From contig CAVXSS010000002.1 in the NCBI GenBank assembly GCA_963764515.1, forward strand, positions 480,052-544,051: a DNA stretch of 64,000 bases. Reading direction: 5' to 3'. Position numbers and translations under genes: made by a program. This document shows, piece by piece, positions 46,965-64,000 of the stretch. The notes beneath the pieces were generated by a model. It saw only the letters and a program-made list of their open reading frames with translations, searched no databases and was not told the origin of the DNA. The stretch is from an uncultured Chloroflexia bacterium. Its GTDB lineage: Bacteria > Chloroflexota > Limnocylindria > Limnocylindrales > CSP1-4. Position 1 is the stretch's first letter. Each line of letters begins with the position of its first letter.

Positions 46965-49900
46965 TCAGTCGAGCGAGGACGTGATCCCAAGCGTCGCTGT
47001 CTTGTGCTGTGACGGCCGCCCACCTGAGTTTCTGACGAACATCTTGATCGAGACGTTGTTGGCTTTGGCGACGCTATCGATCTCGGGCAAGGCGACGGCA
47101 TCGCTTGCATACGCGCTGGCCGCGTTGCAGGAGAGCGGCGACCCGGGACTGCCGTGGGTGGCGAGCAGCGTGGCGCCGTCGTACACCTCGAAGTAATAAC
47201 AAGTCGTGTCGCCAACCGTTGCCGAGCGATACGTGTGGCGGAAGGTCGCGCCGGTGACGACGGAGCCCGCCGGAACGTATGCGGGGAACGTCAGCTTCAG
47301 GTATCGACTGCTATCGAACGATGTCGACCAGCTGGACGTCGAGGTGTATGCGCCATCGCTGACGATGATGACGAACGACTGTACGGCGCTCGTGTCGACC
47401 CCGCCGTTCGCGGTGCCGCCGTCGTCGTGGATCCGGACGCTGACCGTGGCGATACCCGCAGCGCCGGCCGCAGGGGCGTAGGCAAGCGTGCCGGTCGCGC
47501 CGACCGCAGGCTGCGAGCTGAACAGCGGGTTGTTGTCGTTGGTGACGAGGAAGTCGACGACCTGGCCTGCCTCGTCCACCGGACCCGTCGTGATGGCCGT
47601 CGCCCAGCCGCCGACGCTCTGCGCAGCGGCCTCCTGGCGGACGGTCTGGTCGGCGCCCTTGGTGAAGCTCGGCACGTCGTTGACGGCCGTGACGGTGATG
47701 GTCGCGGTCACCGTGTTCGAGTCGAAGGTGCCGTCGTTGGCCTTGTATGTGAAGGTGACGGCTCCGTTCGCGTTGGCGACCGGGGCGTAGCTGAAGGACC
47801 CGTTGGCATTCAGCACCAGGGCGCCCGTGGCGACGTTCGAGACGAGGATCGCACTGAGCGGGTCAGTGTCGGGGTCGGTGTCGTTGAATAGCACGCCGTT
47901 GTAGGGCGTCCCGGTGATCGGCACAACTAGCGTCGTATCTTCCCTGGTCGTGTAGCTGTCCGCGACGGCCGTCGGGGCGCTGGCGATGAGAACCGCGCCG
48001 GATACCGTCGGGGTGCTGCTGTTGCCGACGTTGTCGATGACGACGAGCTGCCAGCGGTAGCAGTTGCCGTTGACCAGGCCGATATGGTTCCGTGGGCTGC
48101 TGCCGGTGTCCGGCGCGCCGTCATTCGCGTAGGACACGCTGGCGCATGTCCCGGGAGTGACCACGCCTCCCTTCTGCCGCTGGAGCGATCGCGAGGCCAC
48201 GCCGGACCCGGTCTCGGTCTCAGACCAGGTGACAGTGACGCTGGTCGCGGACTGGGTGGTCAGGCCCGCGACGGGGATCGAAAAGGTCATCGACGGCGCA
48301 ATGGCGTCCGCGGTGAGGGTGACGGTCCGGGTAGCGCCCGCGGTCAGCACGTTGTTGTAGGGCGTCACGGTGATGTTGGTCGTGGCCGAGGAGGCGGTCC
48401 AGGTGGCGTTCCTGGCCGCCGGGTTGCCGGCGACATCGCCGGAAGCGTAGGTCCATCCCGTTCCAGCGGAGAGCGCACCGTAGTTGTGCTTGTTGATGCC
48501 CGAGGCCGGGTCCGTCGAGCTCGAGGAGAGACTGATGGTGCCCGTGGCGCCGCCCTTGAACCAGATCGCGCTGTTGGGACTCGACTGGTAGACGTTGGTG
48601 CCGGAGCCGGTCACGTTCGGCTGGCTGGGCGCGGTGGTGTCGATCAGTACGGCACCGGACGTGGATCCGGCCGCGTTGCCCGCGAAGTCGGCGAGCGTCT
48701 GGACCCAGCGATAGCAGGTGCCGGTGACGAGCGGACTCTGGGCGACCGAGGAGACGGCCGTGCTGGGAGCGCCGTCGGTGCTCCATGCGGTGGCGGCACA
48801 GGATCCCGGAGAGGACTGGCTGCCCTTCCAACGCTGGAGCGAGCGGCCGCCAGTTGTGGCGACACCGATCCCGCTGCCGTCGCTCTCGGTCCAGGCGATC
48901 GTGTAGCTCGTGGCCGCCTGGAGGGTCGTGGTGCCCTCGTTAGGAGTGGTGAAGTCCGCTGTCGGGGCGGTCGTGTCGAAGGAGACGTTGTCGAAGGTGG
49001 AGGTGTTGAGGGTGCCTGCGACATGCGAGGTGACGACGAGGCCCACGTTGATGGTGCTGCCCATGGTGATGGTCTGCGTCGCGCCCACCGCGGTCCACGT
49101 CACACCATCTGGCGAGCGCTCGGCAAGGAATGTGCTGCCGATCCTGGTCATGCGCACCCAATAGGGCGCGCTGATGCCGCCCAAAACGGTTCCCGTGGCT
49201 GAGGCACCAGTCGTCGCTCGGTAGATCGACTCGGCTCCGGCGGTTCCTTCGATGTCGGCCAACGCCATGGCACTGGTTGCGCCGGTCGTGTCACGGAACA
49301 TGACCCCGCCCTTGGCGGACACCGCCGTGTTCTGGACCGCGAGGACCTTAGCCGTCAGCTGGCCATCGCCGGTCATCGTGCGGTACACGAATTGGAATGC
49401 GTCCGTGGTGCCCCAGATGTCCGCGCCGCCACCTTTCACCGTGTACGTGCCACCGGAGAAGGTCGTGGATCCGACGATGCCGGTGGTGCCGACGTCCCCG
49501 TTGGTCGTGAAGATCCCGAGGGCGTAGACAGTGATGGCGATGGAGTCGGTGTCGGTCAGGTTACCGCCGGAGCCCGTGTTGCCGAGGTCCTTGGTGACGA
49601 CCTGGAGCGTGGCGGCGCCGCTGAAGGTCGAGGTCGGGATAAAGCTGGTCCCGGCCAGGGCAGCATTGATGTTGCCGATCGTCCCGCGGAAGGTCATCGT
49701 CGCGTCGGCGGTGCCGTCTCCGGCGCCCGTGCCGTTGGCGTCGCTGAAGGCGAAGCTCAGGCCGCCGGTGCCCGACAGGCTGACGGTGCCGTTGGTGCCG
49801 GTGAGCTGCACCTGGACCGTCGCTGCAGCGGCGTCGCTGTCGCTGATCGAGATGGGGTTGCCGTTGGCGCTGGAGAAGACCAGGGTCACGCCCTTCGAGG

Positions 49901-52900
49901 TGTCGGCCACCGCGGGCAGGCTGTTGAGCGGCGCGTCGTTCACGGCGTTGACGCTGATCGTGACCGTGACCACGTTGGAGTCGCGGAGGCCGTCATTGGC
50001 CTTGTAACTGAACGAGTCGGTGCCGTTGAAATCCCTGCCGGGCAGGTACGTGAACGAACCGTCGGCGCTGAAGTTGAGGTAGCCGTTGGCCACATCGGAA
50101 ACGAGCAGTGCCGTCAACGGGTCGGACTCCGGGTCCGTGTCGTTGGCGAGCACGCCAGTGCCGACGGCCACAGTCAGCAGCGCGTCTTCGTTGACCGAGT
50201 AGCCGTTGGCGACGGCCGTCGGGGCGACATCGGCGACGACCGTGATCGCGACGTTGTCCGTGTCGCTCAGCGATCCACCGGGGCCGGTGTTGCCCTGGTC
50301 GTTGGTAACGATCTGGAGATTGGCCGAGCCGACATAACCGGCCGTCGGGGTGTAGGTCATGCCCGCCAGCGCGGCGTTGATGTTGGCGAGCGTGCCGGTG
50401 AAGGTCATGGTGCTGTCGGCAGAGCCGGTCCCAACAGTGAACGCCAGCCCGGTCGTGCCGGAAAGGGTCAGGGTTCCGTTCGTGACGGTTAGCTGCTCCT
50501 GCACGCTTGCTGCCCCAGCGTCCACGTCGGAGACGGAGACAAGATTGCCGTTGGCCGTGGAGAAGACGAGGGAGTTATGCGTAGCCTGCGCACCCGGCAC
50601 GCCATTGATGGGAGCGTCGTTGACGGCCGTCACGGTGATGCCGCGCGTGGCGGTGTTGCTGTTCGATGAGCCGTCGTTGGCGACGAACGTGACGGTCCGG
50701 GCGAGCGTGCTGGGTGCATCGCTGGTGTTGGTGTAGGTGATCGACCGGAGGGCCGTCTGGTAGAAGGCCTTGGTCGCACCGCCGGTCAGGGCGAGGACAC
50801 CCGTACCGGCGGTCCAGGTGCCGGTGATGCCGTTCTGGTCGACGAAAGCGAGGGAGTCCTGGGGGTTGGCGTAATTGGTCGTCATCGTGATCGTCGCGGA
50901 GACGAGATTGGCCGAGTCGGCGTCGGTGACGGTGATGCCCGGGTCGAGCAGCACCGCGCCACCGTTCTCCGTGTAGGCCAGTGCGGCGACGGTGGTGGTG
51001 ACCACGGGTGCGGCAGTCGCGGGGTCGGCAATCGTCCAATCTGCGGCGGCAAAGACCGTGATCCCTGTCTGCTGAATCCAGTTGGCCGTCGCATCGCGGG
51101 TGGTGCTCGCCTTGGTGGGGTCCTGCTCGGCCCAGGTACCAGCCAGCTTCCAGAGGCCGACGACGCTCTCCGTGTTGCCGTTGAGCTCCGCGTCCAGGTA
51201 GTGGAGGCGGACCGTGGCCGTGAGCGCGCCGCCGCCGGTCGGCGTGAAGGTGTAGGTCCGGGTGACGGCCCCGGTCTTGGCGGCCGGTGCGGCCTTGACC
51301 AACTTGACCTTGAAGGCGGTCGGCGCGGTGCCGGAGTTGATGGTGATCTGGTTGTGCGGGTTGCCGAAGCAACGCATCGTCCCGGTGCCGATCGTCGTGC
51401 GGCTGACTCCGCCGGTGGCCGACAGGATCGAGGTCACGTCCGTCGTTCCGCTGCACGTCGCCGCAGAGCCGAGCGTCAAGACGTTGGCATTGCCGGCACC
51501 GGAGCCCGTCGAGAGGTCGCCGCTGTCGAGCGACAGCACGCCGTTGACCGTGGCATTTCCGGCCAGCGTCGCGCCGCTCCCGTTGTTCATCCTGAGGTGG
51601 CCATAGGTCACCGCGCTGACGGTTTGAGCCGCGCTCCCGGCGTACTCCACGGTCAGGTTGGTCAGTGTGGTGTTCGTGATCGTGTACTGGTTGCTGAAGC
51701 CGGCGGTGGCCGCCGTCCGCGTGACCTTGACCGTGCCGCTGCCGGTCAGCGTCCCCGAGCCGCTCATCACCGATGCGGCGGCAGGCGTGAACGTGCCACT
51801 GGCGCCGACGGTGAACGTTCCGTTGGCGGCGAAGTTGCCGGTGGCGGAAACGGCCGCTGAGGTGGCGATGGTGAGGCCCTGGAACGTGAGCGTCCCGGCG
51901 TTCGAGATCGATGAACCGTTGTTCATCGTGACGGTGCCGGCGGTTGCTGCCAGGACGGCCGAGGCGTTGACCGTCAGGGCGGTGGCCACGCCGAAGGTCG
52001 CGTTCGAGCTCACGTTGCTGCCGCTGATGACGAGGTTGCCGTAGACCTGGCTGCTGGCGAGCGCCGCCACGGCGGTCGTGGTGCCCGCATACTCGATCGT
52101 GCTGGTCGCGGCGACCGAATGCGTCGCGTAGCCCGCCGGGAACGTCCGCGTGCCGCCGATCTTGAGCGTCGCACCCGCGGCCACGGTGAGCGTTCCGGCG
52201 GGCACCGTTCCTGCAGCCAGCGCGGCCACTTCGACGCCGGTCAGACCGCGGTTGTAGATGCGGAAGTCGTCGACGCGTCCGTCGAAGTACGTATCGGCGG
52301 CGTACTGGGATCGGCCGATCCAGTTGTTGGCCGTGTTGCCCAGGCTCGACGGACCGAGCGTCATGCCGGTGTTCTGGCCCACCTGCGAGCCGTTCACGTA
52401 GAGCGTGCCCGTGTTGCCCGACTTGGTCACCGCCACGTGGACCCATTGGGCGATCGGCAACGCAGCTGTGCCATTGATGACCTGCTCGGTCCCGGCGCCG
52501 CCGGTGGTGATGGCAAAGCGGACGACGTTCGTGCTGCCGTTCTGCGCCGTCAGGAACATGTACGCGGTCGTGCCCGTGCCGTAATCGAAGATCCGCCGCC
52601 AAAGGCCAGTCGTGTCGCGCCGCACCCAGGTCGCGAAGGTGAAGTTGCTGAGCGTGCTGACGATGCCGGTCGGCATGGTGACGTGTTGGTTCGAGCCGTC
52701 GAGGTTGACGGCTTGTCCGATCTGACCGGTGGTGAACGTCGGGGTATTGACCAGCGTGCCATCGAGCCCGGCGCCGCCGCTGTCGGTAGCGTCGTTCTCG
52801 AACTCGTACCACGCGAAGAGTCCGGCCGCGCCGTTGTCGGCTTTGAACGTGCTGAGATCGAAGGTGCCGCCATCGATCCTCAGGTCGCCGATGACGCTCA

Positions 52901-53141
52901 CATCGGCGCCCAGTGTCAGCGTGCCGCTGGACTTGTTGACGACGAGGTCGTTGACCACCGCGGGAAGGCCGTTTCCGGTCGCCTGGGTGCCCGACCCGTT
53001 GTACGTATAGTTCGCGCCCGTCGAGTACGTGCGCGCGCCGGTGACCTGGACGTTCCCGCTCGCGCCGGAGCTGGTGATGCCGTTCGTAGACGTGATGCCG
53101 AGCGTCGCGCCGCTCGACAGGGTGAACGACCCGCGCCCCGG
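46965..53141 (-). CDS. C-terminal ~2058-aa segment (frame C) of a giant secreted subtilase-adhesin
   Basis: This is the ORF 46965..52958 extended upstream in-frame to the TGA at 53142-53144. It contains two LamG/concanavalin-like jelly rolls, repeated Ig-like modules, VNDAP Big_9/cadherin-like repeats and a distinct C-terminal domain. The LamG units read ...WVHVAVTKSGNTGTLYVNGSQ...FDGRVDDFRIYNRGLTGVEV... and ...WVRMTRIGSTFLAERSPDGVTW.... The Ig-like modules read ...GTCYRWVQTLADFAGN... and ...GNCYRWQLVVIDNVGN.... The repeats read ...TDPESDPLTALLV...TVTAVNDAP.... Confidence 0.75.
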   Translation of the reverse strand, partial: PGRGSFTLSSGATLGITSTNGITSSGASGNVQVTGARTYSTGANYTYNGSGTQATGNGLPAVVNDLVVNKSSGTLTLGADVSVIGDLRIDGGTFDLSTFKADNGAAGLFAWYEFENDATDSGGAGLDGTLVNTPTFTTGQIGQAVNLDGSNQHVTMPTGIVSTLSNFTFATWVRRDTTGLWRRIFDYGTGTTAYMFLTAQNGSTNVVRFAITTGGAGTEQVINGTAALPIAQWVHVAVTKSGNTGTLYVNGSQVGQNTGMTLGPSSLGNTANNWIGRSQYAADTYFDGRVDDFRIYNRGLTGVEVAALAAGTVPAGTLTVAAGATLKIGGTRTFPAGYATHSVAATSTIEYAGTTTAVAALASSQVYGNLVISGSNVSSNATFGVATALTVNASAVLAATAGTVTMNNGSSISNAGTLTFQGLTIATSAAVSATGNFAANGTFTVGASGTFTPAAASVMSGSGTLTGSGTVKVTRTAATAGFSNQYTITNTTLTNLTVEYAGSAAQTVSAVTYGHLRMNNGSGATLAGNATVNGVLSLDSGDLSTGSGAGNANVLTLGSAATCSGTTDVTSILSATGGVSRTTIGTGTMRCFGNPHNQITINSGTAPTAFKVKLVKAAPAAKTGAVTRTYTFTPTGGGALTATVRLHYLDAELNGNTESVVGLWKLAGTWAEQDPTKASTTRDATANWIQQTGITVFAAADWTIADPATAAPVVTTTVAALAYTENGGAVLLDPGITVTDADSANLVSATITMTTNYANPQDSLAFVDQNGITGTWTAGTGVLALTGGATKAFYQTALRSITYTNTSDAPSTLARTVTFVANDGSSNSNTATRGITVTAVNDAPINGVPGAQATHNSLVFSTANGNLVSVSDVDAGAASVQEQLTVTNGTLTLSGTTGLAFTVGTGSADSTMTFTGTLANINAALAGMTYTPTAGYVGSANLQIVTNDQGNTGPGGSLSDTDNVAITVVADVAPTAVANGYSVNEDALLTVAVGTGVLANDTDPESDPLTALLVSDVANGYLNFSADGSFTYLPGRDFNGTDSFSYKANDGLRDSNVVTVTISVNAVNDAPLNSLPAVADTSKGVTLVFSSANGNPISISDSDAAAATVQVQLTGTNGTVSLSGTGGLSFAFSDANGTGAGDGTADATMTFRGTIGNINAALAGTSFIPTSTFSGAATLQVVTKDLGNTGSGGNLTDTDSIAITVYALGIFTTNGDVGTTGIVGSTTFSGGTYTVKGGGADIWGTTDAFQFVYRTMTGDGQLTAKVLAVQNTAVSAKGGVMFRDTTGATSAMALADIEGTAGAESIYRATTGASATGTVLGGISAPYWVRMTRIGSTFLAERSPDGVTWTAVGATQTITMGSTINVGLVVTSHVAGTLNTSTFDNVSFDTTAPTADFTTPNEGTTTLQAATSYTIAWTESDGSGIGVATTGGRSLQRWKGSQSSPGSCAATAWSTDGAPSTAVSSVAQSPLVTGTCYRWVQTLADFAGNAAGSTSGAVLIDTTAPSQPNVTGSGTNVYQSSPNSAIWFKGGATGTISLSSSSTDPASGINKHNYGALSAGTGWTYASGDVAGNPAARNATWTASSATTNITVTPYNNVLTAGATRTVTLTADAIAPSMTFSIPVAGLTTQSATSVTVTWSETETGSGVASRSLQRQKGGVVTPGTCASVSYANDGAPDTGSSPRNHIGLVNGNCYRWQLVVIDNVGNSSTPTVSGAVLIASAPTAVADSYTTREDTTLVVPITGTPYNGVLFNDTDPDTDPLSAILVSNVATGALVLNANGSFSYAPVANANGAVTFTYKANDGTFDSNTVTATITVTAVNDVPSFTKGADQTVRQEAAAQSVGGWATAITTGPVDEAGQVVDFLVTNDNNPLFSSQPAVGATGTLAYAPAAGAAGIATVSVRIHDDGGTANGGVDTSAVQSFVIIVSDGAYTSTSSWSTSFDSSRYLKLTFPAYVPAGSVVTGATFRHTYRSATVGDTTCYYFEVYDGATLLATHGSPGSPLSCNAASAYASDAVALPEIDSVAKANNVSIKMFVRNSGGRPSQHKTATLGITSSLD

Positions 53142-53251
53142 TCAAGGTCGTCGTCGTGCCGGCCATCTGGAGCGTCGCGCCGCTGTCGACGATGAAGGCG
53201 ACGTCGTTCGAGACGGTCCCGCCTGACGCGTACGTCTGCACACCCGACCCG

Positions 53252-55780
53252 TTAAAGGTGACGCTGCTCGTGGTGCTCGTGCCGGTCTCGGTCAGCGTTC
53301 CGCCTGAATGGGTGAAGTCGCCGGCGACGTTGAGCGTCACGCTCGCCGCCGATTCGATCGCTGAAGTCGAACGACCCGCTCGAGAGCGAGAAGTTGCCGC
53401 TGACGGACATCGCACGAACGCCGGTGCCGATCGTCCCGCGCAGCGTGCCACCCGTCTGGGAGTAGTCGCCGCCCACGGCCAGGTCACCCGCGGCGTTGTT
53501 GCCCAGTGCGAGCGCGCCGGTGGTGCCGGTACTGGTGACGGTCATGTTCCCGTTCACCGTCCGGAGGTAGCCGCCGAGGCTGAAGGTCGTGGTCTGGTTC
53601 GGGGTGTTCCAGACGAAATCCCAGAACGACTGATTATAGCCGATGTCCGAGGCGCCGCCGCCTGGCGGCGAGGTGTAGCCGACGATCTCGATGGTCGAAC
53701 CCGCGCTCCATGTGGCGGTCGGGATGACGCCGTCCGCCGTCGTCCACGCGTGCTGGTACCGGCCGCCGCTGTTGACGACGATCGTGGCGCCGGTGTTGAT
53801 GGTCACCGTCCCGGCGCTACGGAACGTGCCGGTCACCGACAGGTCGGTACCCGCCCCCGCGTTCAGCGTCAGCGTGATGCCGCTGTTGAGGTCGAGCTCG
53901 CCGCCCGCATCGACGACGACCTCGTCCGCCGTCACGTTGGCAGCGACGGTCACGATGTGGGCGTTACGGATCGTGATCGTGCTGGCCGCATTGGTCGGCG
54001 CGAGGGTCGCGGTGCTCCACGTGACACAGCCGCCGGCGATCGGAGCGCTCTGCCAGGTGCCTGTCGTGGCCCAGTTGCCGCTGGCACGGGAGCGGAAGCA
54101 GTCGGTCGACGTGGAGGCCGCCACGTAGGGACCCACGAAGGGGCCACCGTCGGCGGCTCCGGTGTTGCCGGCCGGGGTGACCGGCTCCGTGGCGGCGTCC
54201 TGCGCCGCGCGAGCGAGGTCGAGGCGGCCGTTGCCGGTCTGGGCCCGCGTGCCGACGGCTGCCGCCGAGCGCGCCAGGCGGCCCACGATGACGGCGTTGC
54301 TGGCGGTGGTGTCGAGGGCCCAGAGGAGGGCCGCGGCACCGGCCACCTCGGCGGCGGCGGCGCTGGTGCCCGAGACGCTGGTGTACTCGTCGTCGGTGAG
54401 CGGGTCCGCGTCGGCGTTCGCGGCGGTGGTCAGGATGTCAACGCCGGGTGCCGCCAGGAAGGTCTGCGGTCCGTGGTTGCTGTCGGCCGCGAGGAGGTCC
54501 GCCTCGTCGGTGGAGGCAACGCCCATCACACCGCGATCGCCGGCGGGGTACGTCGGCGTTGTGACGCCGTCGTTGCCCGTCGCCGCGACGATGACCGCCC
54601 CGCCGTCCCAGGCGTAGTCGATCGCCGCCTGGAGCGCGGCCGAGTAGCCGGGGGCGGAGAACGCGAGGAGGATGACGTCCGCGCCATTGTCCGACGCGTA
54701 GAGGATGCCGCGGATGATGTCGCTGTCCTGGCCCGTTCCGTCCGCGGCGAGAACCGCGACCGGCATGACCCTGACGCCTGCCGAGCCGATGCCGGCGATG
54801 CCCTCGCCATTGTCGGTCGCCGCGGCCACGATGCCGGCCATCCACGTCCCGTGGCCGTTCGGGTCGGTCAGCGGGTCCGTGCCGACAAAGGATGCGCCTG
54901 GGATGGTCCGGCCGAGGAGATCCGGATGCGAGGCGTCGACTCCGGTATCGAGAACCGCGACCAGGGCCTCGCCGTCGGTCGGAACGCGGACCGATGGCCA
55001 GCCGATCCTTGGCAGCGACCACTGGTCCGCGTAGCGAGGGTCAGCCCCGACCGCCTCGACGGCGCGGGCGCGATCGAGCTCCACGTGCACCACGCCCGCG
55101 CGCGCGCGCAAGGCGGCCGCGCCGGCAGTAGCAGCTGCCGCCGGCAGCTCCACGACGGCGAGGCCGAGCGCGGGAACCGTCGAGACGATCATGGCGCCGC
55201 CTGTCGCCAGCGCGGCCGCCTGTTGTTGAGCCGACGTCCATCGATTGAAGGTCACGATGTAGCTCACGGGATTGGTCGTGACCGACGATGGCTCTGGCGG
55301 CGAGGATGCGCCCAGCGGAGAAGGCGCCTGCGTGAGGGGTGCGCCAGGAGCCGGGCCCGGTTCCGGCACGCCGCTCCCTTCGGGCAATGGCATCGGGCTC
55401 GGTTCCGGCGTGATGCTCGCTTCAGGCGGCGACTCTGGGTCAGGGGACGGCTCATCGGGAACGGCCGATGGGTCGACCTCCGGGGGTTCGGTCGGCGTGG
55501 GCTCGGCGGTCGGCGAGGGCTCGGCGGTCGGCGAGGGTTCGGCGGTCGGCGAAGGTTCGGCGGTCGGCGAAGACGACGGATTCGGGGCGACGGATGCGGC
55601 CATGTCGGACGGAACCGGGGTCGCAGGGTGGGCCGCGGTCACGGAGGCCGGCATCAGCACCGTCGCCACGTAGAGAGCGGCCAGCATGCCGGCTCGGATC
55701 CCGGCGGCGCGTGCAGCGCTGGACCGGAACCATCGGGTCCGGATCGACCGCTTCCGGATCATGGGATGTCGAGCCCCCAT
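53252..55780 (-). CDS. N-terminal segment (frame A) of the giant protein: Sec signal peptide, Pro/Ser/Glu-rich linker, S8 subtilisin-like protease domain, then beta-helix-like T/G/S-rich repeats
   Basis: The S8 catalytic triad is VAVLDTGVD (Asp), NGHGTWMAG (His) and SGTSAAAAEVAG (Ser). The last ~35 codons of this ORF (DRIGGERDAQRRRRL...) are post-frameshift noise. Confidence 0.8.
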   Translation of the reverse strand: MGARHPMIRKRSIRTRWFRSSAARAAGIRAGMLAALYVATVLMPASVTAAHPATPVPSDMAASVAPNPSSSPTAEPSPTAEPSPTAEPSPTAEPTPTEPPEVDPSAVPDEPSPDPESPPEASITPEPSPMPLPEGSGVPEPGPAPGAPLTQAPSPLGASSPPEPSSVTTNPVSYIVTFNRWTSAQQQAAALATGGAMIVSTVPALGLAVVELPAAAATAGAAALRARAGVVHVELDRARAVEAVGADPRYADQWSLPRIGWPSVRVPTDGEALVAVLDTGVDASHPDLLGRTIPGASFVGTDPLTDPNGHGTWMAGIVAAATDNGEGIAGIGSAGVRVMPVAVLAADGTGQDSDIIRGILYASDNGADVILLAFSAPGYSAALQAAIDYAWDGGAVIVAATGNDGVTTPTYPAGDRGVMGVASTDEADLLAADSNHGPQTFLAAPGVDILTTAANADADPLTDDEYTSVSGTSAAAAEVAGAAALLWALDTTASNAVIVGRLARSAAAVGTRAQTGNGRLDLARAAQDAATEPVTPAGNTGAADGGPFVGPYVAASTSTDCFRSRASGNWATTGTWQSAPIAGGCVTWSTATLAPTNAASTITIRNAHIVTVAANVTADEVVVDAGGELDLNSGITLTLNAGAGTDLSVTGTFRSAGTVTINTGATIVVNSGGRYQHAWTTADGVIPTATWSAGSTIEIVGYTSPPGGGASDIGYNQSFWDFVWNTPNQTTTFSLGGYLRTVNGNMTVTSTGTTGALALGNNAAGDLAVGGDYSQTGGTLRGTIGTGVRAMSVSGNFSLSSGSFDFSDRIGGERDAQRRRRLHPFRRNADRDRHEHHEQRHL

Positions 55781-56514
55781 GGGATGATCTCCGTTGTGGT
55801 GTCCGCGGCGTCGCGGAACATCACCGGATAGAGGGTGAAACCCTGGTAGGCGGTCGATCCGACGACGGTCGCCTGGTCGATGACCATCGCGGCGTTGCCG
55901 GACTCCTTGCCGAAGATGCGGACGCGCAGGTCGTTCGCGATCGAGGTCGTCGCCGCTGCCGGGATCGACGTCGAGAACGTCGTCGGGGTCGTTCCGGTGA
56001 CGCAGCCGACCGGGCTACCTGGACTGCCGTGCGTCCCGAGGACCGCGCCGGTCGAGATCCTCCGAACCTCGAAGTAGTAACACGCCTGGCCCGCCCCGCT
56101 GCTGGCAAGCCTGAGGTCGAACGTTGCGGCAGAGACGGCCACACCCGAGGCCAACGAATCGTTGAGGTCGAACTCGAGGTACCGGCCGGCCGCGAAGGTG
56201 CTCGACCAGGTCGACGTGGTCACGGTCAGGCCATCGCCCGAATAAGCGAACGAGTTGGAGCGGTCGACCTCGACGCCGGATGATGAATCGCCGACCTCGA
56301 ACGCGGGGGTGACGCGTTCGCCCGGGAACAACGCCTTTGACCCGAACAGGGCCACCCCCTCCGTTTGAGCCGTGAAGATGGCGAGGCTCAGTCCAACCAT
56401 GGCGAAAGCGATGGAGACAAGCGCGCCCACGGCCGCAAACACGATGACGGCACGGAAGCGGCGCCTCGGGGTGGCGATGCCGATCGCGTCTCGCCCTCCC
56501 GCTCGGGCGGTCAT
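55759..56514 (-). CDS. Exported TasA/camelysin-like small protein whose C-terminal ~135 aa is homologous to the C-terminal domain of the giant subtilase-adhesin
   Basis: The N-terminal TM/signal region is followed by LAIFTAQTEGVALFGS, resembling the TasA-type mature N-terminus. The C-terminal region ...GQACYYFEVRRISTGAVLGTHGSPGSPVGC... parallels ...TTCYYFEVYDGATLLATHGSPGSPLSC... at the giant protein C-terminus. It overlaps its neighbours by 4 and 22 bp. Confidence 0.6.
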   Translation of the reverse strand: MTARAGGRDAIGIATPRRRFRAVIVFAAVGALVSIAFAMVGLSLAIFTAQTEGVALFGSKALFPGERVTPAFEVGDSSSGVEVDRSNSFAYSGDGLTVTTSTWSSTFAAGRYLEFDLNDSLASGVAVSAATFDLRLASSGAGQACYYFEVRRISTGAVLGTHGSPGSPVGCVTGTTPTTFSTSIPAAATTSIANDLRVRIFGKESGNAAMVIDQATVVGSTAYQGFTLYPVMFRDAADTTTEIIPWGLDIP

Positions 56515-57062
56515 GGGACCCCTGCCTGCCGGGTAGCGCCGAATGACAGCGTCACGGTTGTAGTCGAGCCCTGGAGCCCGTTATCAGAATCCCACGGCAG
56601 GTCTGCCCGGAAGCACAGGATCTCGGCGGTTGCAGCGGGCAGCGGCCGGCCGTCGACTTCGTTGCCGAACGCCGCGTCATCGAGCGGGCCATCGAACAGG
56701 GTCATGCCGTCGAAGTCCGCGCAGGATGAGCCGATCGTCTTGATCGTGAGGAGCAGCGCCGCCGAGAGACGGTGTCCACCGACTGCCACGAGCCCACGGC
56801 GCATCGCGTACGTCACGGGTTCACGACCGGAGTTCGTCACGGTTATCGAGGCCGCGACCGAGTCTCCGGGAACCAAGTCGCGGGCCGACAGAGTCGCGTC
56901 TCGTGCGTCGGCACTGAGATCGATCGACGAGATCTCGAATCGGTCGGGGGCAGCCACGTCGGCGCGCGGCGGGCTGGATGTGACCGTCTTCCAGGTGAGC
57001 CACGCGCATGCGATCGATAGCACGACGATCAAGGTCACCGCAAGCCGCCGGCTTCGGGTCAT
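56511..57062 (-). CDS. Exported/membrane-anchored small protein (possible SipW-cognate substrate)
   Basis: The 183-aa product has an N-terminal TM segment (LAVTLIVVLSIACAWLTW) and is beta-rich and acidic. It sits between sipW and the TasA-like gene above, with 4-bp overlaps on both sides. Confidence 0.5.
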   Translation of the reverse strand: MTRSRRLAVTLIVVLSIACAWLTWKTVTSSPPRADVAAPDRFEISSIDLSADARDATLSARDLVPGDSVAASITVTNSGREPVTYAMRRGLVAVGGHRLSAALLLTIKTIGSSCADFDGMTLFDGPLDDAAFGNEVDGRPLPAATAEILCFRADLPWDSDNGLQGSTTTVTLSFGATRQAGVP

Positions 57063-57607
57063 GGCGCGATCGGCTCTCGGGCATCAGCCGGGATCGTGCG
57101 GGCGCGCGGCTCGAGCATTTCGAGGAGCACATGGAAGAGGAGGAGTGCGCCGAGGAGGCACAGCGCGGCGAGCACGCCGGGACCCTTTGACAGGAAGTCC
57201 TGGGCGTAGCCGGCGTACGGCACGTACCGGTCCGCGGCCCCGACGATCGCCCGACCGGGAACGAGGCTGGCGTCTGGATCCTGGTTGGCGTCGCCCTTCG
57301 TTTCGAAAAAGCGGCCTTCCGGCAGATCGACCACGCGACTCACGCGGTGGGTCACGACGACCTCGTTGTCGGCGCGGATCGTGATGACGTCGCCGACGCC
57401 GACCGTCATGACGTCGGTCGGGGTGACGACGACCAGGGAGCCGATCGGGATCGCGGGCTCCATCGAGCCGCCGACGACGACGAACAGCTGGTGGCCGGTG
57501 AGCGGTGCGAAACGGGTGAACAGAGCGAAGCTGATGAGGAGGACGAAAAGCGATATCCCGATGAGACCGACGGCCCGACGCGCGAGACGGGACGAGCTCA
57601 GGATCAT
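57059..57607 (-). CDS. sipW: Signal peptidase I, archaeal/SipW-type
   Basis: The product has an N-terminal TM segment, then the VVVGGSMEPAIPIGSLVVV catalytic-Ser motif (GSMEP) typical of SipW-type SPases, then ...GDANQDPD.... It also has a C-terminal TM (VLAALCLLGALLLF). Confidence 0.8.
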   Translation of the reverse strand: MILSSSRLARRAVGLIGISLFVLLISFALFTRFAPLTGHQLFVVVGGSMEPAIPIGSLVVVTPTDVMTVGVGDVITIRADNEVVVTHRVSRVVDLPEGRFFETKGDANQDPDASLVPGRAIVGAADRYVPYAGYAQDFLSKGPGVLAALCLLGALLLFHVLLEMLEPRARTIPADAREPIAP

Positions 57608-57679
57608 CGAGATCGCGCTCCATTCATGCGAGAGCGGTCCGACCGTCGGTCGGACCGCTCGGTGCTGCCGGGCGACGGC

Positions 57680-58255
57680 CTAGTTGTTCTGGGTTTGCTC
57701 GGCGTTGAAGGTGAAGGTCGTGACCGCAGTCGCGCCCTGGAACGTTTCGTCGGTGGCAAGCGGGAGGGAGACCCGGATGCAGAGCACGTCGGTCGCGGCG
57801 GCAGCCACGGTCCGATCGCCGGTTCCGTCAGTCGGTGAAACGCTGCCGAACATGACGTTCGAGGCGCCGAGCACTTCCGACGCCTGGAGGACCGTGCCAT
57901 CAAAGTCGTCGCACTTGACGAGCGGAGTGGTGGCGTCCACGGTCCTGACCTCAACGGTCAGGGCTGCGTTGAGCACGCCGCCGTTCGGGCCAGCCACGCT
58001 CGTCGACGTGGTGTTCAGCGAGTAGCGGAGCTCATTGGTCCCGACGTTCTCGACGTCGACTGAGCCGGTGTTGGAGTCACCAGGCATCATGTTGGCATTC
58101 GTGAGCGAGAGGGCGTCGATCTTCGTCGCGTCGAGGATGATCGTCCCCGCAGTGAACGTCCCGTCGACGGTCTCGGTGTCCGTGAACACGGCTAGGGACG
58201 TCGCCCCGACACCGATGCTCGCGACTGTGAGGGCGGCCCCGAGAGTGAGAAGCAT
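57680..58255 (-). CDS. TasA/camelysin-family (peptidase M73-like) exported protein with SipW-cognate-type signal peptide
   Basis: The ORF 57680..58813 was trimmed to the ATG at 58255. The 191-aa product reads MLLTLGAALTVASIGVGATSLAVFTDTETVDGTFTAGTIILDA..., matching the TasA-family signal peptide plus AxF(T/N)D mature N-terminus, and is beta-rich. It is the first gene of the sipW operon. Confidence 0.75.
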   Translation of the reverse strand: MLLTLGAALTVASIGVGATSLAVFTDTETVDGTFTAGTIILDATKIDALSLTNANMMPGDSNTGSVDVENVGTNELRYSLNTTSTSVAGPNGGVLNAALTVEVRTVDATTPLVKCDDFDGTVLQASEVLGASNVMFGSVSPTDGTGDRTVAAAATDVLCIRVSLPLATDETFQGATAVTTFTFNAEQTQNN

Positions 58256-58578: not shown

Positions 58579-58666
58579 TCGGTGGTCGAGTGGTTGGTGT
58601 CTCGTTCGCCAGATCACCGAAGAGCGCCTGATAGACTTCGCGCCGCGGGCGGGAGTAGCTCAGTTG
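58579..58666. repeat. Right copy of the ~85-bp imperfect direct repeat (perfect core 58624-58666)
   Basis: See the left copy at 46826-46910. The two copies lie ~11.75 kb apart and bracket exactly the tasA-sipW-giant-adhesin operon. Confidence 0.7.
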
Positions 58667-58695
58667 GCAGAGCGGCAGCCTTCCAAGTCTCCCGC
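58644..58695 (+). other. tRNA-like minihelix: acceptor-stem-like 7 bp (GCGGGAG/CTCCCGC) enclosing a canonical D-arm (TA-GCTC-AGTTGGCA-GAGC) and 15 further nt; no anticodon or T arm could be folded
   Basis: The element starts inside the right repeat core. The left repeat copy keeps GCGGGAGTAGCTCAGTTGG but loses D-stem closure. This suggests a tRNA-gene remnant or tRNA-like attachment-site relic rather than a functional tRNA. Confidence 0.3.
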
Positions 58696-58917
58696 TGTCG
58701 AGCGTTGTGCTCTGATCACAGGATCCCCGCACAAATCGGCCGATTGGGGCCCAGTTTGACGCTCGGGTGCGACAGCGTATAAGTCGGCCACAGCGGATAA
58801 CTTCCTGGGACAATTGAGCGCTGTCTCGGGCCCCTGGATCGATGCCTGACGAAGGGATCGCGCGGTCCTCTTCAATGCCCGGGCCAATGGGCCTCTGGGG
58901 GCGGGACGGGAACCCCG

Positions 58918-60054
58918 CTAGTTGACGGGCTGTGATGCGAGCGTCGTGAGGTCGATGGTCTCGTCGCCAGCCACGACCGCGGCATCATATCTGCGCTGGA
59001 GGTTCGTCACGAGTCGAACCACCGTGTTGCCGCAGACTCCGGTCGACAGGTAGACCCGCAGCCACTCCGGAGTTATGTCCATGCGGAATTGCTGTCCGAC
59101 GTGAAGGTCAACGACTTCCGCCTCTGCGAACTGGTCGTTCACCAAGCGGGGGACGGCCCAAAGCCGGAACGGATCGCGACACGAGAAGAGGCCTGTCAGG
59201 AATTGACCCATATCATCGATCCGGCGACCGAAGCTGATCTGCAGGACGTGCCCCTCGAAGCCAAAGCCGCTTTGCTCAGAGCCCTCCCAGCCAATCGAGA
59301 AGTGCCGCTCGATGTGCCGTACCGCCTGGGCGTATGCCTGAACGGCGCCGGCCATGAAGCCCAAGTGGAGTTCGAAGGCGGCGCCACGGGCGGCGAAGCG
59401 CCCTTGATAGTGGGCTGCTTCGTCGACCACTCCGAGATCCGGATCGCGCATCCGAAGGGCCACTCCGCTTAAGGCTGTCGACAGGCGATACCGGTCGTCA
59501 CCGATGAGCTGATCGAGCAACTCATCCGCCGAATCGCCCTCAAGCTGCACCCGAAGACGCCGCGCGCGAACTCCCTCCAAGGGCAAGAGTTCGTCGCCCC
59601 GGAACTCCGACTTGAACCATCGCGGCTCACCGGCACCCTGCAACCCACGAAGGAACTGCCAGGGGAACCAGCACCAGTCAATGCCCCGTGACGACCAGAC
59701 TGCTCGTCGCAGCTGACCCTGCACGATTCCCGCGGGAGCCGCTGTATGAATCAACCAAAATCGTGGATCAAGGACGTCAACGAAGAGCCCAACGGAGTCA
59801 TCCCACAGAAGAGCCAAAGCTGGATCGTCGGTCCGAGACATCGAGAGGCCAAGTCTTCTCCCGAGGGCTGCGACAGCATCAAGAGGGTTAGGCTCTTCGT
59901 GCCCGGAGTTCACCTCTAGGGCATAGCTCTTGACCTCGCCTGCACGCAGCTCAAACGGAAGGCGATCGGGTTCTCGGCGCTGACCCGACATTGCTGCTGT
60001 CAGAAGACCAGCGATACCCTCGCGGTCGATCGGCACGGATGGGACAGCCGTCAC
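58918..60054 (-). CDS. Hypothetical 378-aa protein, no family recognisable by eye; lower-GC gene
   Basis: The ORF is intact and has GC of roughly 58-60% against ~70% in the flanking DNA. It begins 3 nt after the stop of the upstream gene, so it is operonic. It contains an RHIERH (Rx4H) stretch and a Trp-rich segment WCWFPWQF, but no confident motif. Confidence 0.55.
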   Translation of the reverse strand: MTAVPSVPIDREGIAGLLTAAMSGQRREPDRLPFELRAGEVKSYALEVNSGHEEPNPLDAVAALGRRLGLSMSRTDDPALALLWDDSVGLFVDVLDPRFWLIHTAAPAGIVQGQLRRAVWSSRGIDWCWFPWQFLRGLQGAGEPRWFKSEFRGDELLPLEGVRARRLRVQLEGDSADELLDQLIGDDRYRLSTALSGVALRMRDPDLGVVDEAAHYQGRFAARGAAFELHLGFMAGAVQAYAQAVRHIERHFSIGWEGSEQSGFGFEGHVLQISFGRRIDDMGQFLTGLFSCRDPFRLWAVPRLVNDQFAEAEVVDLHVGQQFRMDITPEWLRVYLSTGVCGNTVVRLVTNLQRRYDAAVVAGDETIDLTTLASQPVN

Positions 60055-60057
60055 GTC

Positions 60058-60984
60058 TTAGCCCTCCCCGCGCTCGATCTCTTGCCCGAGATCTTCAAAC
60101 GACATCTGCCCAGCAGGGACCCTGGCCGCCCTCGGTCTTCCTCTCAAGGTGCGCTCGGCTTTGCGCCGCATGCTCTGCCATCCCTGAGTCTCGCCTCTCG
60201 GATCGAAGGCAGCAGGTGACCGGAGGATACGGAGGACGCTGCCTTGGATGTCGGCGCCGCCAGGTTCAACCGACAAGTACTCGGTGAGCTCGCCCTCCGA
60301 CATTCGCCGGACGATGGTCGTCGCCCGGTCGCGCATTCTTGATCGGGCCCGCTGACCGTAAACGCTTGAGTAGGGAATGGCGGCGGCCAGCAGGCTGTCG
60401 AAGGTGATGACCGTTTCTCCTCGCGCGGCGGCGGCGACTATAGCAGGAAGGAGAACCTCCCTGAGCTCCTCATCTGGGCTGTCAGCGTCCACTGGGATCA
60501 ACCGTGGTGGGGGACCGGCCGGGACGTTCACTTCGAACGGCGTCAGCACACTGCTACCCCTCGTCTCCAGCTTCACGCTCGAAGAGCCAATCACCAAGAG
60601 AGGAGCCTGAAAGCCAATAGCGCGAAGGCCGGTCACAACTCGCTCTTGCGACTCCTCGAGACAGGCATAGAGGGGCTGCACAATCGCTCCGGTGGGAGGA
60701 AACGGAAGGGTTACGTTTCGAGCGACGTTGTCCGCGGTCATGACCTCGTATCGTTGGGCTTGATCAGCCTCGACGTTGTTGCCGCTCTTGCACTCCGTCG
60801 GCAGAAGGATCTGTCGATCAGCGTTGAGTCCGAGCCCGTCGACAACCACGGACGTGCGTGAGGTGGAGATGGGAATCTCGAACCGCTGGATGCGGAAGCC
60901 TTGGTCACGAAGGGGAGCGGGCCAACCACCTTCGCCTGTCAGTAGGGCGATCCAGGCGTTGAGCGGGATCAGACGTGGTTCCAC
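60058..60984 (-). CDS. Hypothetical 308-aa protein with N-terminal PD-(D/E)xK nuclease-like motif (VVVDG...ILLPTECK); lower-GC gene
   Basis: It has a GTG start. The beta-strand-D then ExK arrangement, ~13 residues apart, mirrors the HsdR nuclease motif seen in this window (DVILFVNGLPLVLIELK). The C-terminal ~150 aa are unassigned. Confidence 0.5.
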   Translation of the reverse strand: MEPRLIPLNAWIALLTGEGGWPAPLRDQGFRIQRFEIPISTSRTSVVVDGLGLNADRQILLPTECKSGNNVEADQAQRYEVMTADNVARNVTLPFPPTGAIVQPLYACLEESQERVVTGLRAIGFQAPLLVIGSSSVKLETRGSSVLTPFEVNVPAGPPPRLIPVDADSPDEELREVLLPAIVAAAARGETVITFDSLLAAAIPYSSVYGQRARSRMRDRATTIVRRMSEGELTEYLSVEPGGADIQGSVLRILRSPAAFDPRGETQGWQSMRRKAERTLRGRPRAARVPAGQMSFEDLGQEIERGEG

Positions 60985-61075
60985 TCGTTGGGTCGCCTAA
61001 CGCCCAACGAGGGTAGTTGCGGACCGGCTTTCTAGAACATATGTGCTAATCATACTCCCGACCGTTCCTTCCGCA

Positions 61076-63990
61076 TCACTCGGGTGGCCGCTCCGCGACC
61101 GCCAAGAGATCGGTAGCGTGCTCAGCGGCTACCGGGTACTCGACGATCGGCGGTTCTGACGGCGGCTCCGTGCCCCACGCCGCCGACAAGACCTCCGCCT
61201 GCTCAAGGACGGTCTGCGTGGCCTTGGTCTGCTTGTCCGGCGGGTAGCCGTACTTGCGCAGGACGCGCTTGACGATTAGGCGGAGCTTGGCGCGGACGCT
61301 CTCCTTCTCGGCCCAATCGATCGTCGTGTTGCGTCGAACGGTTGAGACAAGCTCGCGGGCGATGGTCCGTAGAGTGTCGTCGCCGAGCACGGCGACCGCG
61401 CTGTCGTTCGTCTCTAGGGCGTCGTAGAAGGCGAGTTCGTCGTCGCTCAAGCCGAGCTTCCCGCCGCGCTCTTTGGCCTCGCGGATCTCGCGGGCGATCT
61501 CGATCAGCTCTTCGATGACCGCCGCCGTCTCGATCGCCCGGCTCTGGTACTTGCGGAGCGACCGCTCGAGCATCTCAGAGAACGCTCGCGACTCAACGAG
61601 GTTCCGGCGCGACCGGATCTTGATCTCGTCGGTGAGCAGCTTCCGCAGGAGTTCGACTGCCAGGTTCCTCTGAGGTAGGTCGCGGACCTCTGCCAGGAAC
61701 TCGTCGGACAGGATCGAGATGTCCGGCTTTGGGAGACCGGCCGCCGCGAAGACGTCGATGACCTCCTCACTGACGATCGCGCCGGCGACAATTTGGCGCA
61801 CGGCGTGCTCGATCTCGGCCGGCCCACGCTTGCCCTCCGCCGGGCCTTTGGGCAGCGCGGCACGGACGGCCTGGAAGAAGGCAACCTCATCCCGGAGCGC
61901 GAGCGCACCCTCGTGCGGGACGGCGAGAGCAAAGGCCCTCGACAGGGCGCTCACGCTGGCGAGCAAGCGCTCGCGACCATCCACCTGCGCCAGGACGTAC
62001 TCGAGTGCGGCCGGCAAGACCGACAACCGTTGGGTCGGGGTACCGGTGAAGAACTTCGAGCGGTCGAAGCCGTGGAACAAGCGCGGCCACGACCTCGTAC
62101 TTCTCGTGAAAGACGGCGACCGCCTCGGCCTGGTCGATGGCGGTGGTGCCCTTGCCGCCGCTTCGCGTGTAGTCGGCCATCGCGCGGCGGAGCTGATCGG
62201 CGACGCCGAGGTAATCGACCACCAGGCCGCCCGGCTTGTCCCGATAGACACGGTTGACGCGCGCTATCGCCTGCATCAGGCCATGGCCGCGCATCGGCTT
62301 GTCGAGGTACATCGTGTGCAGGCTCGGCGCATCGAAGCCGGTCAGCCACATGTCCCTCACGATGACGATCCGGAACGGATCCTCGGGATCGCGGAACCGG
62401 CGGGCGAGCACCTCGCGCCGAGCCTTGCTTCGGATGTGCGGCTGCCATGGGAGCGGATCGGATGCCGAGCCAGTCATCACGACCTTGAGCGCGCCCTCGA
62501 CATCGGTCTTGCCGGCCCACTGCGGTCGGATGCGGACAAGCTCGTCGTACAGGTCGACGGCTATTCGCCGGCTCATGGCGACGATCATCGCCTTTCCCTC
62601 GAGGGCATCGACACGCTGCTCGAAGTGCTCGACCAGGTCGGCGGCGACGAGCGACAGGCGCCTGTCGGTCCCGACTAGCGCCTCCAGCGCCGCCCATTTC
62701 GACTTGATCTTCTCCTTGGCGGCGGTCTCCTCGCCCTCGGTTACCTCATCGAACTCGGCGTCGATCCGCGGCTTCTGCTCCTCGGGCAGATCGAGCTTGG
62801 CCAGACGGCTCTCGTAGTAGATCGGGACAGTTGCCCCGTCGTCAACCGCGCGGCTGATGTCGTATACGTCGATGTAGTCGCCGAAGACGGCTGGTGTGCT
62901 GCGGTCGGCGAGCTCGATCGGCGTGCCGGTGAAGCCGATGAACGTCGCGTTCGGCAGCGCGTCGCGGATGTTCTTGGCGAAGCCATAGGACAGGTGCGCC
63001 GTACCGTCTCGGCGCTCAACTACGTGTGCACCGAAGTCGTATTGGCTGCGATGGGCCTCGTCGGCGATAACCACGACGTTGCGCCGATCGGTCAGTAGCG
63101 GGAAATGGTCGCCAATTTCGTCCGGCAGGAACTTCTGGATGGTCGTGAATACGACACCGCCGGCGGCGACCGCGAGGAGCCGCTTGAGATGGGCGCTCGA
63201 CTCGGCCTGGATCGGCTCCTGGCGAAGCAGCTCGGCGCACTGGGCGAAGGTCGACGAAGAGCTGGTCGTCGAGGTCGTTGCGGTCGGTGATGACGACGAT
63301 CGTCGGGTTCTCGAGCGCTGGCTCGAGCACCAGGCGTCCGGCGAAGTAGGCCATCGTCAGGCTCTTGCCCGAGCCCTGGGTGTGCCAGACGACGCCTGCT
63401 CGCTTGTCGCCGTCGGGTCGACTGGCCGTGATGGCCGCCTCGATCGCGTGGTTGACGGCGTGGAATTGGTGGTACCCGGCGAGCTTCTTTGACACGCCAG
63501 CCGGCTCGTCGGCGAAGACCAGGAAGTGACGGAGGTAGCCGATCAGGCGGTCGGGGGCGAGAAGGCCACGGATGAGGACCTCGAGCTCGGTGACGTTCGC
63601 GGGCGCGAGGTTCGCGCCGTCGATCGTCCGCCAGCGCATGAACCATTCGCGACCGGATGTCAGCGAGCCGAAGCGGGCCTCGACGCCGTTCGAGGCGACG
63701 AGCAATTCGTTGTACCCGAAGATCGTCGGGACCTTCGCCTTGTAGGTCTGGAGCTGGTTGAACGCCGACCAGATGTCGGCGCTCTCGGTTGTCGGGTCCT
63801 TGAGCTCGATCAAGACGAGCGGCAGTCCGTTGACGAAGAGGATGACGTCGGGCCGGCGGTTCTCGCCCGCCTCGACGATCGTGAACTGGTTGACCGCCAG
63901 GAAGTCGTTCGCGGCGGGCCGATCGAAGTCGAGGAGACGGATCCGCTCGCCCGCGATCCGCCCGTCGCCAGCGGCGTACTCGACCTCCAC
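61076..63990 (-). pseudogene. hsdR: Type I restriction enzyme R subunit (HsdR), N-terminus beyond the window end, disrupted by two single-base frameshifts
   Basis: Three consecutive track ORFs in different frames together give a colinear HsdR: a nuclease motif FVNGLPLVLIELK; helicase motif [16 protein letters not shown]; [14 protein letters not shown]; motifs III-VI ...IGFTGTP...; and the C-terminal helical domain. The frame switches at ~63245-63252 (LDDQLFVD|FAQCAELL) and ~62078-62086 (YEVVAA|[11 protein letters not shown]). Confidence 0.8.
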
Positions 63991-64000
63991 GCCGTCGACG

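Follow-up and report, generated by a model that had tools for sequence, protein, structure and literature searches.

A mobile gene pair for a predicted PD-(D/E)xK nuclease and a TBP-like partner as a candidate defense module of bacteria and archaeal plasmids

A 64,000-nucleotide stretch of DNA from an uncultured Chloroflexia bacterium (assembly GCA_963764515.1, contig CAVXSS010000002.1, positions 480,052 to 544,051; here, the window) carries two adjacent genes, A and B (Table 1), coding for a predicted nuclease and for a partner protein built of TBP-like modules. We favor, with some reserve, the reading that A and B make up a self-contained mobile two-protein DNA-nuclease module, most likely for defense against, or exclusion of, invading DNA; as part of that reading, the pair would require no methyltransferase or NTPase of its own. 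As a nuclease-based defense-island module, the pair is of a known kind. What is new is the B partner and the coupling between a nuclease site in A and a pocket-like site in B.

A and B form a single, rare unit

A and B are intact and co-directional, and 3 nt separate them, exactly as a first-pass annotation of this DNA had read the open reading frames (ORFs). Their N termini and lengths match those of their families in alignments of homologs. In a precomputed Pfam table, protein P0001, 100% identical to A, carries PF27326 ("MJECL32"), and all 109 B homologs carry PF25924 ("MJECL33"), B itself being matched via an identical or 97%-identical protein. Both family names derive from neighboring ORFs on the Methanocaldococcus jannaschii plasmid pDSM2661_1. 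These names are locus tags only, the plasmid records annotate the genes as "hypothetical protein," and our literature search found no paper naming PF27326, PF25924, MJECL32, or MJECL33 or describing the pair. No resource that we searched describes the pair as a system, whereas its proteins had already been placed in Pfam. A check for membership in housekeeping families returned only these two uncharacterized families. Neither protein matched a Pfam, NCBIfam, or PADLOC (2023) model at E <= 1, the Pfam copy having been scanned without PF27326 and PF25924, which agrees with the earlier impression that neither resembles a known Abi, Thoeris, CBASS, or Gabija component; the two family profiles had no match at E <= 10 among PDB sequences.

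The B family is real but rare. An exhaustive profile search of 1.84 billion proteins returned 814 cluster representatives at E <= 1e-3, and a scan of 185,579 species genomes (one genome per species, with a 14-sequence alignment as the query) returned 26 loci in Actinomycetota, Myxococcota, Chloroflexota, Acidobacteriota, and Gemmatimonadota. By tblastn, B was also found on plasmids of M. jannaschii (pDSM2661_1), Halobacterium hubeiense, Lysinibacillus irui, and other Bacillales, with archaeal and Bacillota copies 23 to 28% identical to the B of the window. The same approach gave no plasmid match for A, whose plasmid partners were detected only by the family profile: in M. jannaschii, the B profile matches at E 2.6e-71, and the A profile matches the overlapping neighbor at E 1e-6. 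Since on these plasmids the overlapping downstream gene is the one that matches the A profile, their order is B to A. In total, the pair spans six bacterial phyla and two archaeal plasmids.

A lies directly beside B and in the same direction in 34 of the 35 fetched loci and on three plasmids, usually with a 4-nt overlap or a few nt at the junction and with gaps of at most ~30 nt. The order is A to B in Actinomycetota, Myxococcota, Chloroflexota, and Acidobacteriota and B to A in Gemmatimonadota, Bacillota, and Archaea. No third gene recurs with the pair among 24 non-redundant loci. A and B are obligately linked and constitute a single unit, and the co-occurrence expected of a two-gene system was seen at every locus but one. 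This outlier (L035, 9383-11428) is a Myxococcaceae B-like ORF without an A beside it; the pocket residues described below are gone, and it carries a C-terminal extension of ~160 aa without a family match. An apparent A-B fusion, P0157, was rejected as Rosetta-stone evidence because frame +1 at its junction encodes the normal tail and stop codon of A; as a frameshift read-through from a single 3.7-kb contig, it was discarded.

Carriage by phages was not seen: tblastn with three different B proteins gave no match in 50,697 phage records, and three pattern scans of IMG/VR found no relatives. B does match phrog_22469, whose function is uncharacterized (E 2e-35, and 1e-47 for the M. jannaschii copy).

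Protein A is a predicted RecB/NucS-type nuclease

The AlphaFold2 model of A (predicted local distance difference test [pLDDT] score, 89.9) shows a restriction endonuclease/NucS-like fold followed by a C-terminal winged helix. We collected 38 A homologs, and in an alignment of 30 of them E36, D49, K66, G68, Q75, and Y79 are invariant, with E64 nearly so. The same motif set holds across 17 non-redundant loci of the main clade, and D, (E/D)xK, and QxxxY are present in the copies from M. jannaschii, Halobacterium, and Lysinibacillus. A combines a restriction-endonuclease-like fold with the catalytic D...(D/E)xK and with QxxxY after ExK, so that both motifs and model predict a RecB/NucS-type PD-(D/E)xK nuclease with an intact site. 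The PD-(D/E)xK signature that the first-pass annotation had recognized by eye in the upstream protein is therefore borne out by invariant residues.

Behind the winged helix, A ends in a conserved tail with the consensus Q-L-[S/D]-[L/F]-x-[D/E]-L and acidic residues after it, Q293 and L299 being nearly invariant. The Lysinibacillus tail has QLSLF, that of several actinobacterial members has QxxLF, and still other tails have QLDLW or QLDLL. The bacterial sliding-clamp-binding motif is QL[S/D]LF or QφxLxL (bioRxiv 10.64898/2026.05.27.728225), and NucS, an enzyme with a RecB-like nuclease domain, becomes active via a C-terminal clamp-binding peptide (PMC8228993). The A tail may be a clamp-binding motif, a resemblance that we treat as a lead and not as a result.

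Protein B is a chain of TBP-like modules with a candidate pocket

The first-pass annotation could assign no motif to B, apart from an "Rx4H-like" stretch, RHIERH. The absence of matches to family models agrees with this, but a structural likeness and a Pfam family were found. The AlphaFold2 model (pLDDT, 93.6; predicted template-modeling score, 0.92) consists of three beta-alpha-beta4-alpha modules. Foldseek gave no global match, all template-modeling scores being <=0.25; what it matched were TBP, Iml3, and the N-terminal domains of RnlA. The modules resemble only the TBP/CENP-L/KA1/RdgC/RnlA N-terminal domain type, with Foldseek probabilities of 0.7 to 0.85 for the RnlA domain, and neither the model nor Foldseek revealed a recognizable enzyme fold. 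The TBP-like domains of RnlA bind its substrate (PMC8266594), and fused TBP-like domains in prokaryotic Schlafens (pSlfn) have been interpreted as sensors (PMC13056530). The RHIERH stretch did not survive comparison, as R246 and H251 are not conserved in the B family; a relationship to RnlA-type HEPN toxins was rejected on the same grounds, only the TBP-like modules being shared.

Among 250 members of the B family, D126, W129, H318, C341, and N343 are conserved in 98 to 100%, and the distant archaeal and Bacillota copies have retained them. Strand topology places H318, in a hairpin turn, and C341 and N343, in a strand-to-helix loop, at the same end of the sheet of the third module. This placement of H318, C341, and N343 is compatible with a single pocket. 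Other blocks of B, in contrast to these residues, are kept in every clade, including the one described next (Table 1).

Nuclease site and pocket residues are kept or lost together

Apart from L035, the only exceptions to the conservation of the B pocket lie in a Gemmatimonadota-type clade of five deeply diverged pairs (L032 to L034, L036, and L037), whose B proteins are 36 to 39% identical between the sub-groups compared. In this clade, D49 and K66 are missing from A, as in most cases are E36 and Q75. B has lost D126, W129, H318, C341, and N343 (N351 in part), with replacements that differ by lineage, and keeps K42, E47, D93, R98, W100, H103, PFxW, D316, R347, and Q353. These inactive pairs sit in a fixed synteny of tol-pal, epimerase, B'-A', rimI-tsaB-tsaE, uvrB, and relA.

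That the active site of A and the pocket of B are retained or lost together argues for a functional coupling of the two sites. Since the pocket went with the nuclease site and other residues stayed, B would have two functional surfaces. The pocket (D126, W129, H318, C341, and N343) appears to be needed only alongside an active nuclease, and the surface retained in every pair plausibly binds A or DNA. The clade itself looks like a mobile nuclease module domesticated into a non-catalytic complex. It also indicates which residues to mutate, because both sites were lost together while the pair was kept.

The pair travels on mobile elements and in restriction islands

The pair rides plasmids, conjugative elements, and tRNA/integrase islands and is often found as the last genes of restriction operons. 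Directly upstream of it lies hsdM-hsdS-hsdR both in the window and its sister contig L001 and, with an A only 40% identical, inside a conjugative-type element (L009). At another locus, the pair is placed between hsdS and hsdR (L013, hsdM-hsdS-A-B-...-hsdR), and at a further one it completes a type III Res-Mod-A-B array in which A begins 10 nt past Mod (L015). Adjoining genes elsewhere encode McrBC (L003), an HsdM-like protein (L029), a GmrSD-like enzyme with an SMC/LmuB-like ATPase (L016), and an insertion sequence (IS) element of the IS3 type, an integrase, and HsdM (L006). L010 has a DrmMI/type IIG-like methyltransferase on one side and a 1942-aa DruE-like helicase on the other; this Druantia-like helicase (5486-11314) carries MrfA Zn-binding and C-terminal Peptidase_S24 domains. 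The M. jannaschii plasmid has HsdR, PIN, EVE, OLD-like endonuclease, and VapBC genes nearby, and L022 is a mini-island of tRNA-SeC, A, B, and an integrase without other cargo.

Counted over the non-redundant loci, restriction or defense genes occur within three genes of the pair at ~9 of 24 (~40%), with types I, III, and IV among them. We infer that the chance rate would be well below 1% per locus for restriction genes alone. The commonest neighbors are tyrosine integrases (5/24 loci), HsdM (4), and HsdR (3); among 129 pooled neighbors, N6_Mtase is found 5 times, Phage_integrase 4 times, and ResIII and Helicase_C 3 times each, the remainder being mixed housekeeping families. The frequency of restriction, defense, or mobile settings is in line with what the first-pass annotation had expected of an anti-phage module. 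Pairs without any nearby methyltransferase also exist (L004 and L022).

A second overlapping pair of unannotated genes was seen near A-B in two unrelated loci (L001, 16297-17424 and 17412-18248; L015, 15285-16364 and 14501-15301). This second pair may represent a further uncharacterized island module; in L001, a 1291-aa TPR/PIN-TPR protein comes after it.

Proposed function and alternative explanations

In the mechanism that we propose, A and B would form a complex with B as the nucleic-acid-binding sensing subunit. The pocket of B might read a cue, for example, some property of foreign DNA, a base that is flipped or modified, or a sign of infection, and this reading would license A to cut invading DNA, with the winged helix anchoring A on the DNA. 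The Q-L-[S/D]-[L/F] tail of A may hold the enzyme at the replication sliding clamp, like that of NucS, or dock onto B. The outcome would be a type IV-like restriction of foreign DNA or an abortive self-destruction.

A more far-reaching combination of these ideas is tentative and, taken as a whole, doubtful. B would be a new kind of sensor, a TBP-like chain whose invariant Asp/Trp/His/Cys/Asn pocket reads foreign or replicating DNA, or else forms a second catalytic site, and it would license a clamp-tethered nuclease. Such NTP- and methyltransferase-independent restriction would be conserved across at least six bacterial phyla and the plasmids of methanogens and haloarchaea; in Gemmatimonadota, domestication would have left a catalytically dead complex on the chromosome that took on a new role in housekeeping.

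Several points weigh against the defense module. The evidence for defense consists of genomic context and the nuclease, because no known defense model matches the proteins; context, linkage, and composition support the earlier proposal of an anti-phage module, but the activity itself we infer from them. More than half of the loci have no recognizable defense gene within three genes, among them several Solirubrobacterales loci, L028, and Actinoplanes L004, where the pair has unremarkable chromosomal surroundings. One whole clade is chromosomal and syntenic, and the co-loss of both sites is essentially one evolutionary event. In most members, position 5 of the A tail is acidic and thus off the clamp consensus. 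Finally, the hsdR gene beside the pair in the window is possibly broken, so that the local operon could be partly inactive.

Were A instead a DNA-cutting toxin and B its neutralizer, the pair would stabilize its carrier plasmids and islands and would not be anti-phage. The overlapping two-gene operon on plasmids, integrative and conjugative elements, and mini-islands would suit such a toxin-antitoxin (addiction) module, as would the VapBC, HipA, and MqsA modules nearby in some loci and the TBP-like modules common to B and the RnlA toxin-antitoxin system. We nevertheless consider it unlikely: B is larger and more strongly conserved than A and has ~99% invariant polar residues of a pocket-like or enzyme-like kind, unlike typical antitoxins, the gene order flips between lineages, and the inactive clade retains both genes after loss of the "toxin" site. 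A role in genome maintenance, with A as a NucS-like, replisome-tethered repair or recombination nuclease that spreads horizontally with a DNA-binding partner and is not directed at invaders, would draw on the RecB/NucS-type motifs and fold, the clamp-motif-like tail with its QLSLF form in Lysinibacillus (PMC8228993; bioRxiv 10.64898/2026.05.27.728225), the likeness of B to DNA binders of the RdgC/TBP type, and the syntenic chromosomal clade beside uvrB. This clade, however, is the one without catalytic residues, and active pairs are sporadic (the 26 loci above), foreign in composition, and found in restriction or mobile contexts; we regard such a role as distinctly unlikely.

The operon positions raise the question of whether A and B are accessory subunits of restriction-modification systems, serving as a back-up nuclease or anti-restriction sensor that works only with neighboring Hsd, Res, and Mod proteins. 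The pair occupies the last two places of type I operons in two lineages; in a third lineage, it is enclosed by hsdS and hsdR, and a fourth has it 10 nt behind a type III mod. Yet the partner systems differ in type (I, III, IV, and IIG-like), many pairs have no restriction gene nearby, including the tRNA/A/B/integrase island and Actinoplanes L004, and no third gene recurs, all of which makes this explanation improbable. In TnsA, a restriction fold precedes a winged helix, the same domain order as in A, and integrases, IS elements, and tRNA genes are frequent beside the pair; a TnsA-like endonuclease with an accessory protein that acts in excision, transposition, or replication of its element is nonetheless, in our judgment, highly improbable. 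No rival fits the whole pattern as well as the defense-module reading.

If defense is confirmed, A-B would be a compact two-gene immune module common to archaea and bacteria and outside the PADLOC 2023 catalogue, and B would be a sensor protein without a characterized relative. A clamp-binding tail, if true, would link a defense nuclease to the replisome; to our knowledge, clamp targeting is known for the repair enzyme NucS but is not established for defense nucleases. For annotation, the analysis provides a functional hypothesis for two locus-tag-named Pfam families and flags the "broken" hsdR beside the pair as a possible assembly artifact.

Relation to known systems

A differs from NucS/EndoMS in having no N-terminal mismatch-binding dimerization domain, its nuclease domain being N-terminal with the winged helix after it. 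It always occurs with B and is sporadic and mobile, whereas NucS is a lineage-wide repair gene. With respect to the clamp peptide of NucS, the A tail is an exact QLSLF in Lysinibacillus and QxxLF in some members. The type IV enzymes Mrr, McrBC, and GmrSD are similar in that a restriction-endonuclease fold is combined with a winged helix; they act without a cognate methyltransferase, and the pair may do so too. In Escherichia coli K-12, mrr adjoins hsdR, and the location of the pair beside hsd, mcrBC, and GmrSD-like genes parallels this arrangement. In contrast, no Mrr_cat, McrB/McrC, or GmrSD model of Pfam or PADLOC matches at E <= 1, and the pair has a separate TBP-like partner and no NTPase.

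Hachiman also couples a nuclease (HamA, DUF1837) with a second protein, the helicase HamB, but B has neither a helicase fold nor ATPase motifs, and no PADLOC HamA or HamB model matches. The N-terminal TBP-like domains of RnlA, of the RnlAB system, are what the B modules resemble; unlike RnlA and pSlfn, B lacks HEPN and Schlafen domains and is a polypeptide of its own, with a DNA nuclease as the effector. The placement within a type I operon (L013) or directly behind hsdR (the window and L009) recalls that of PrrC in the prr locus, although the proteins are unrelated and the pair also occurs with other systems or alone.

Three further candidates were rejected. Druantia type II (DruM-DruF-DruG-DruE) was considered for L010, but no PADLOC model matches A or B, and a DruE-like neighbor occurs at 1 of 24 loci. 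A Tn7 TnsA-like endonuclease was dismissed for want of a Pfam TnsA match and of a recurrent transposase neighbor. Nor is the pair a type I restriction-modification subunit, as a constant association with hsdR, hsdM, and hsdS was not seen: type I genes lie within ~8 kb at only ~5 of the 24 non-redundant loci.

The locus in the window and its flanks

The composition of A and B is foreign to the host. Their GC contents of 0.625 and 0.621 compare with 0.693 +/- 0.022 for 37 host genes in the window (z, -3.1 and -3.25), and their GC content at third codon positions (GC3) of 0.69 compares with 0.85 +/- 0.06 (z, -2.7). The AT-richer patch noted by eye is therefore real, at ~3 standard deviations below the host genes, but smaller than the "58-60% vs 70%" first claimed. 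The dip extends to the neighboring camelysin-like gene and, in the sister contig, also to hsdS. The L001 hsdS (5417-6709) has a GC3 of 0.67, low like that of A/B, as opposed to 0.87 for hsdR and 0.83 for hsdM; the island is a compositional mosaic. No convincing terminal repeats were found in a search around the pair.

Table 1. Positions of the features discussed, numbered from the first nucleotide of the window
Feature	Position	Strand	Remarks
Gene A	60058..60984	-	308 aa; predicted PD-(D/E)xK nuclease, winged helix, and conserved C-terminal tail; Pfam PF27326 "MJECL32"
A nuclease domain, residues ~1-157	60514..60984	-	Restriction-endonuclease-like, predicted RecB/NucS type
A catalytic motif block	60748..60879	-	E36 ... 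D49 ... E64-x-K66 ... Q75-x-x-x-Y79
A winged-helix domain, residues ~171-255	60220..60474	-	
A C-terminal tail, Q293-M-S-F-E-D-L299	60088..60108	-	After a basic low-confidence linker
Gene B	58918..60054	-	378 aa; three TBP-like alpha/beta modules; Pfam PF25924 "MJECL33"
B sub-site part 1, D126-x-x-W129	59668..59679	-	D 240/241, W 239/241
B sub-site part 2, D316-L-H318 ... C341-G-N343 ... R347 ... N351	59002..59109	-	H 247/249, C 244/247, N343 245/247
B always-conserved block, D93 ... R98-F-W100 ... H103	59746..59778	-	Kept in all clades, including the catalytically dead one
B always-conserved loop, P295-F-R-L-W299	59158..59172	-	P 249/249; kept in the inactive clade
Type I hsdR, three frames	63016..63990, 61887..63074, 61076..62251 (whole 61076..63990)	-	5' end beyond the window edge
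hsdR-A spacer, 91 nt	60985..61075	-	Hairpin of ~12 bp (~61013..60982) ending at the GTG of A; palindromes CATATG and TTCTAGAA
tRNA-Gly(UCC)-like 5' half, 45 nt	58649..58693	+	Rfam tRNA 22.6 bits, below the gathering score of 29; ARAGORN negative
LamG/Big_9/cadherin-like protein, 1997 aa	within 46965-58255		Cluster also has two small uncharacterized proteins
S8 subtilase gene	53252-55780	-	Host-side cluster
SipW-like signal peptidase	57059-57607		Host-side cluster
Camelysin/TasA-like protein	57680-58255		Host-side cluster

L001, a metagenomic contig, is 99.7% identical to positions 58694..64000 of the window and has the gene order hsdM-hsdS-hsdR-A-B-integrase, with an intact HsdR of 1067 aa that carries Pfam HSDR_N, ResIII, T1R_D3, and T1RH_C matches. 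The three hsdR fragments of the window match this protein with phmmer E values of 1e-162 to 1e-220. Five indels separate the two sequences, all of them single extra bases in the window (at ~63255, 62082, 58986, 58918, and 58770), and those at ~63255 and ~62082 split hsdR into its three frames. At the 3' end of B, by contrast, the indel at 58986 throws L001 out of frame, and the reading of the window agrees with the B family. With hsdR broken in the window and B in L001, both assemblies carry indels, real or artifactual. The loss of frame reported for hsdR is thus seen in the window, but it amounts to two 1-nt insertions and may be an assembly error.

The spacer between hsdR and A has the length, hairpin, and palindromes that had been pointed out, but its fold is unexceptional (z, -1.75, not significant), and it is not conserved: at other loci, A abuts or overlaps its upstream gene. 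A regulatory role of the hairpin was rejected, since it is neither statistically unusual nor conserved. The spacer holds no promoter-like or terminator-like site, and with nothing like a terminator between hsdR and A, co-transcription of the pair with hsdR is probable in the window.

On the other side, the homology between window and L001 stops at 58694, right at the tRNA-Gly(UCC)-like half, and L001 runs on into an integrase; the tRNA-like site marks the island junction. The tRNA-like scar of the first-pass annotation is accordingly found exactly where the homology ends, although Rfam scores it below threshold and ARAGORN calls no tRNA. The half, which extends through the anticodon loop, is directly followed by CTCCCGC, which is complementary to the 5' strand of its own acceptor (58649-58700, +). 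It resembles a tRNA gene internally deleted at the island junction, and no intact tRNA was found anywhere in the 64-kb window.

Beyond the junction lie genes for secreted proteins, namely, an S8 subtilase, a SipW-like peptidase, and a camelysin-like protein. They belong to a host-side cluster of secreted and surface proteins (46965-58255) that the first-pass annotation had called a cassette. An 18-nt tandem repeat of 4 to 5 copies (55489-55578) lies inside the S8 subtilase gene, where it encodes a Pro/Thr/Ala/Glu-rich linker, (PTAEPS)n.

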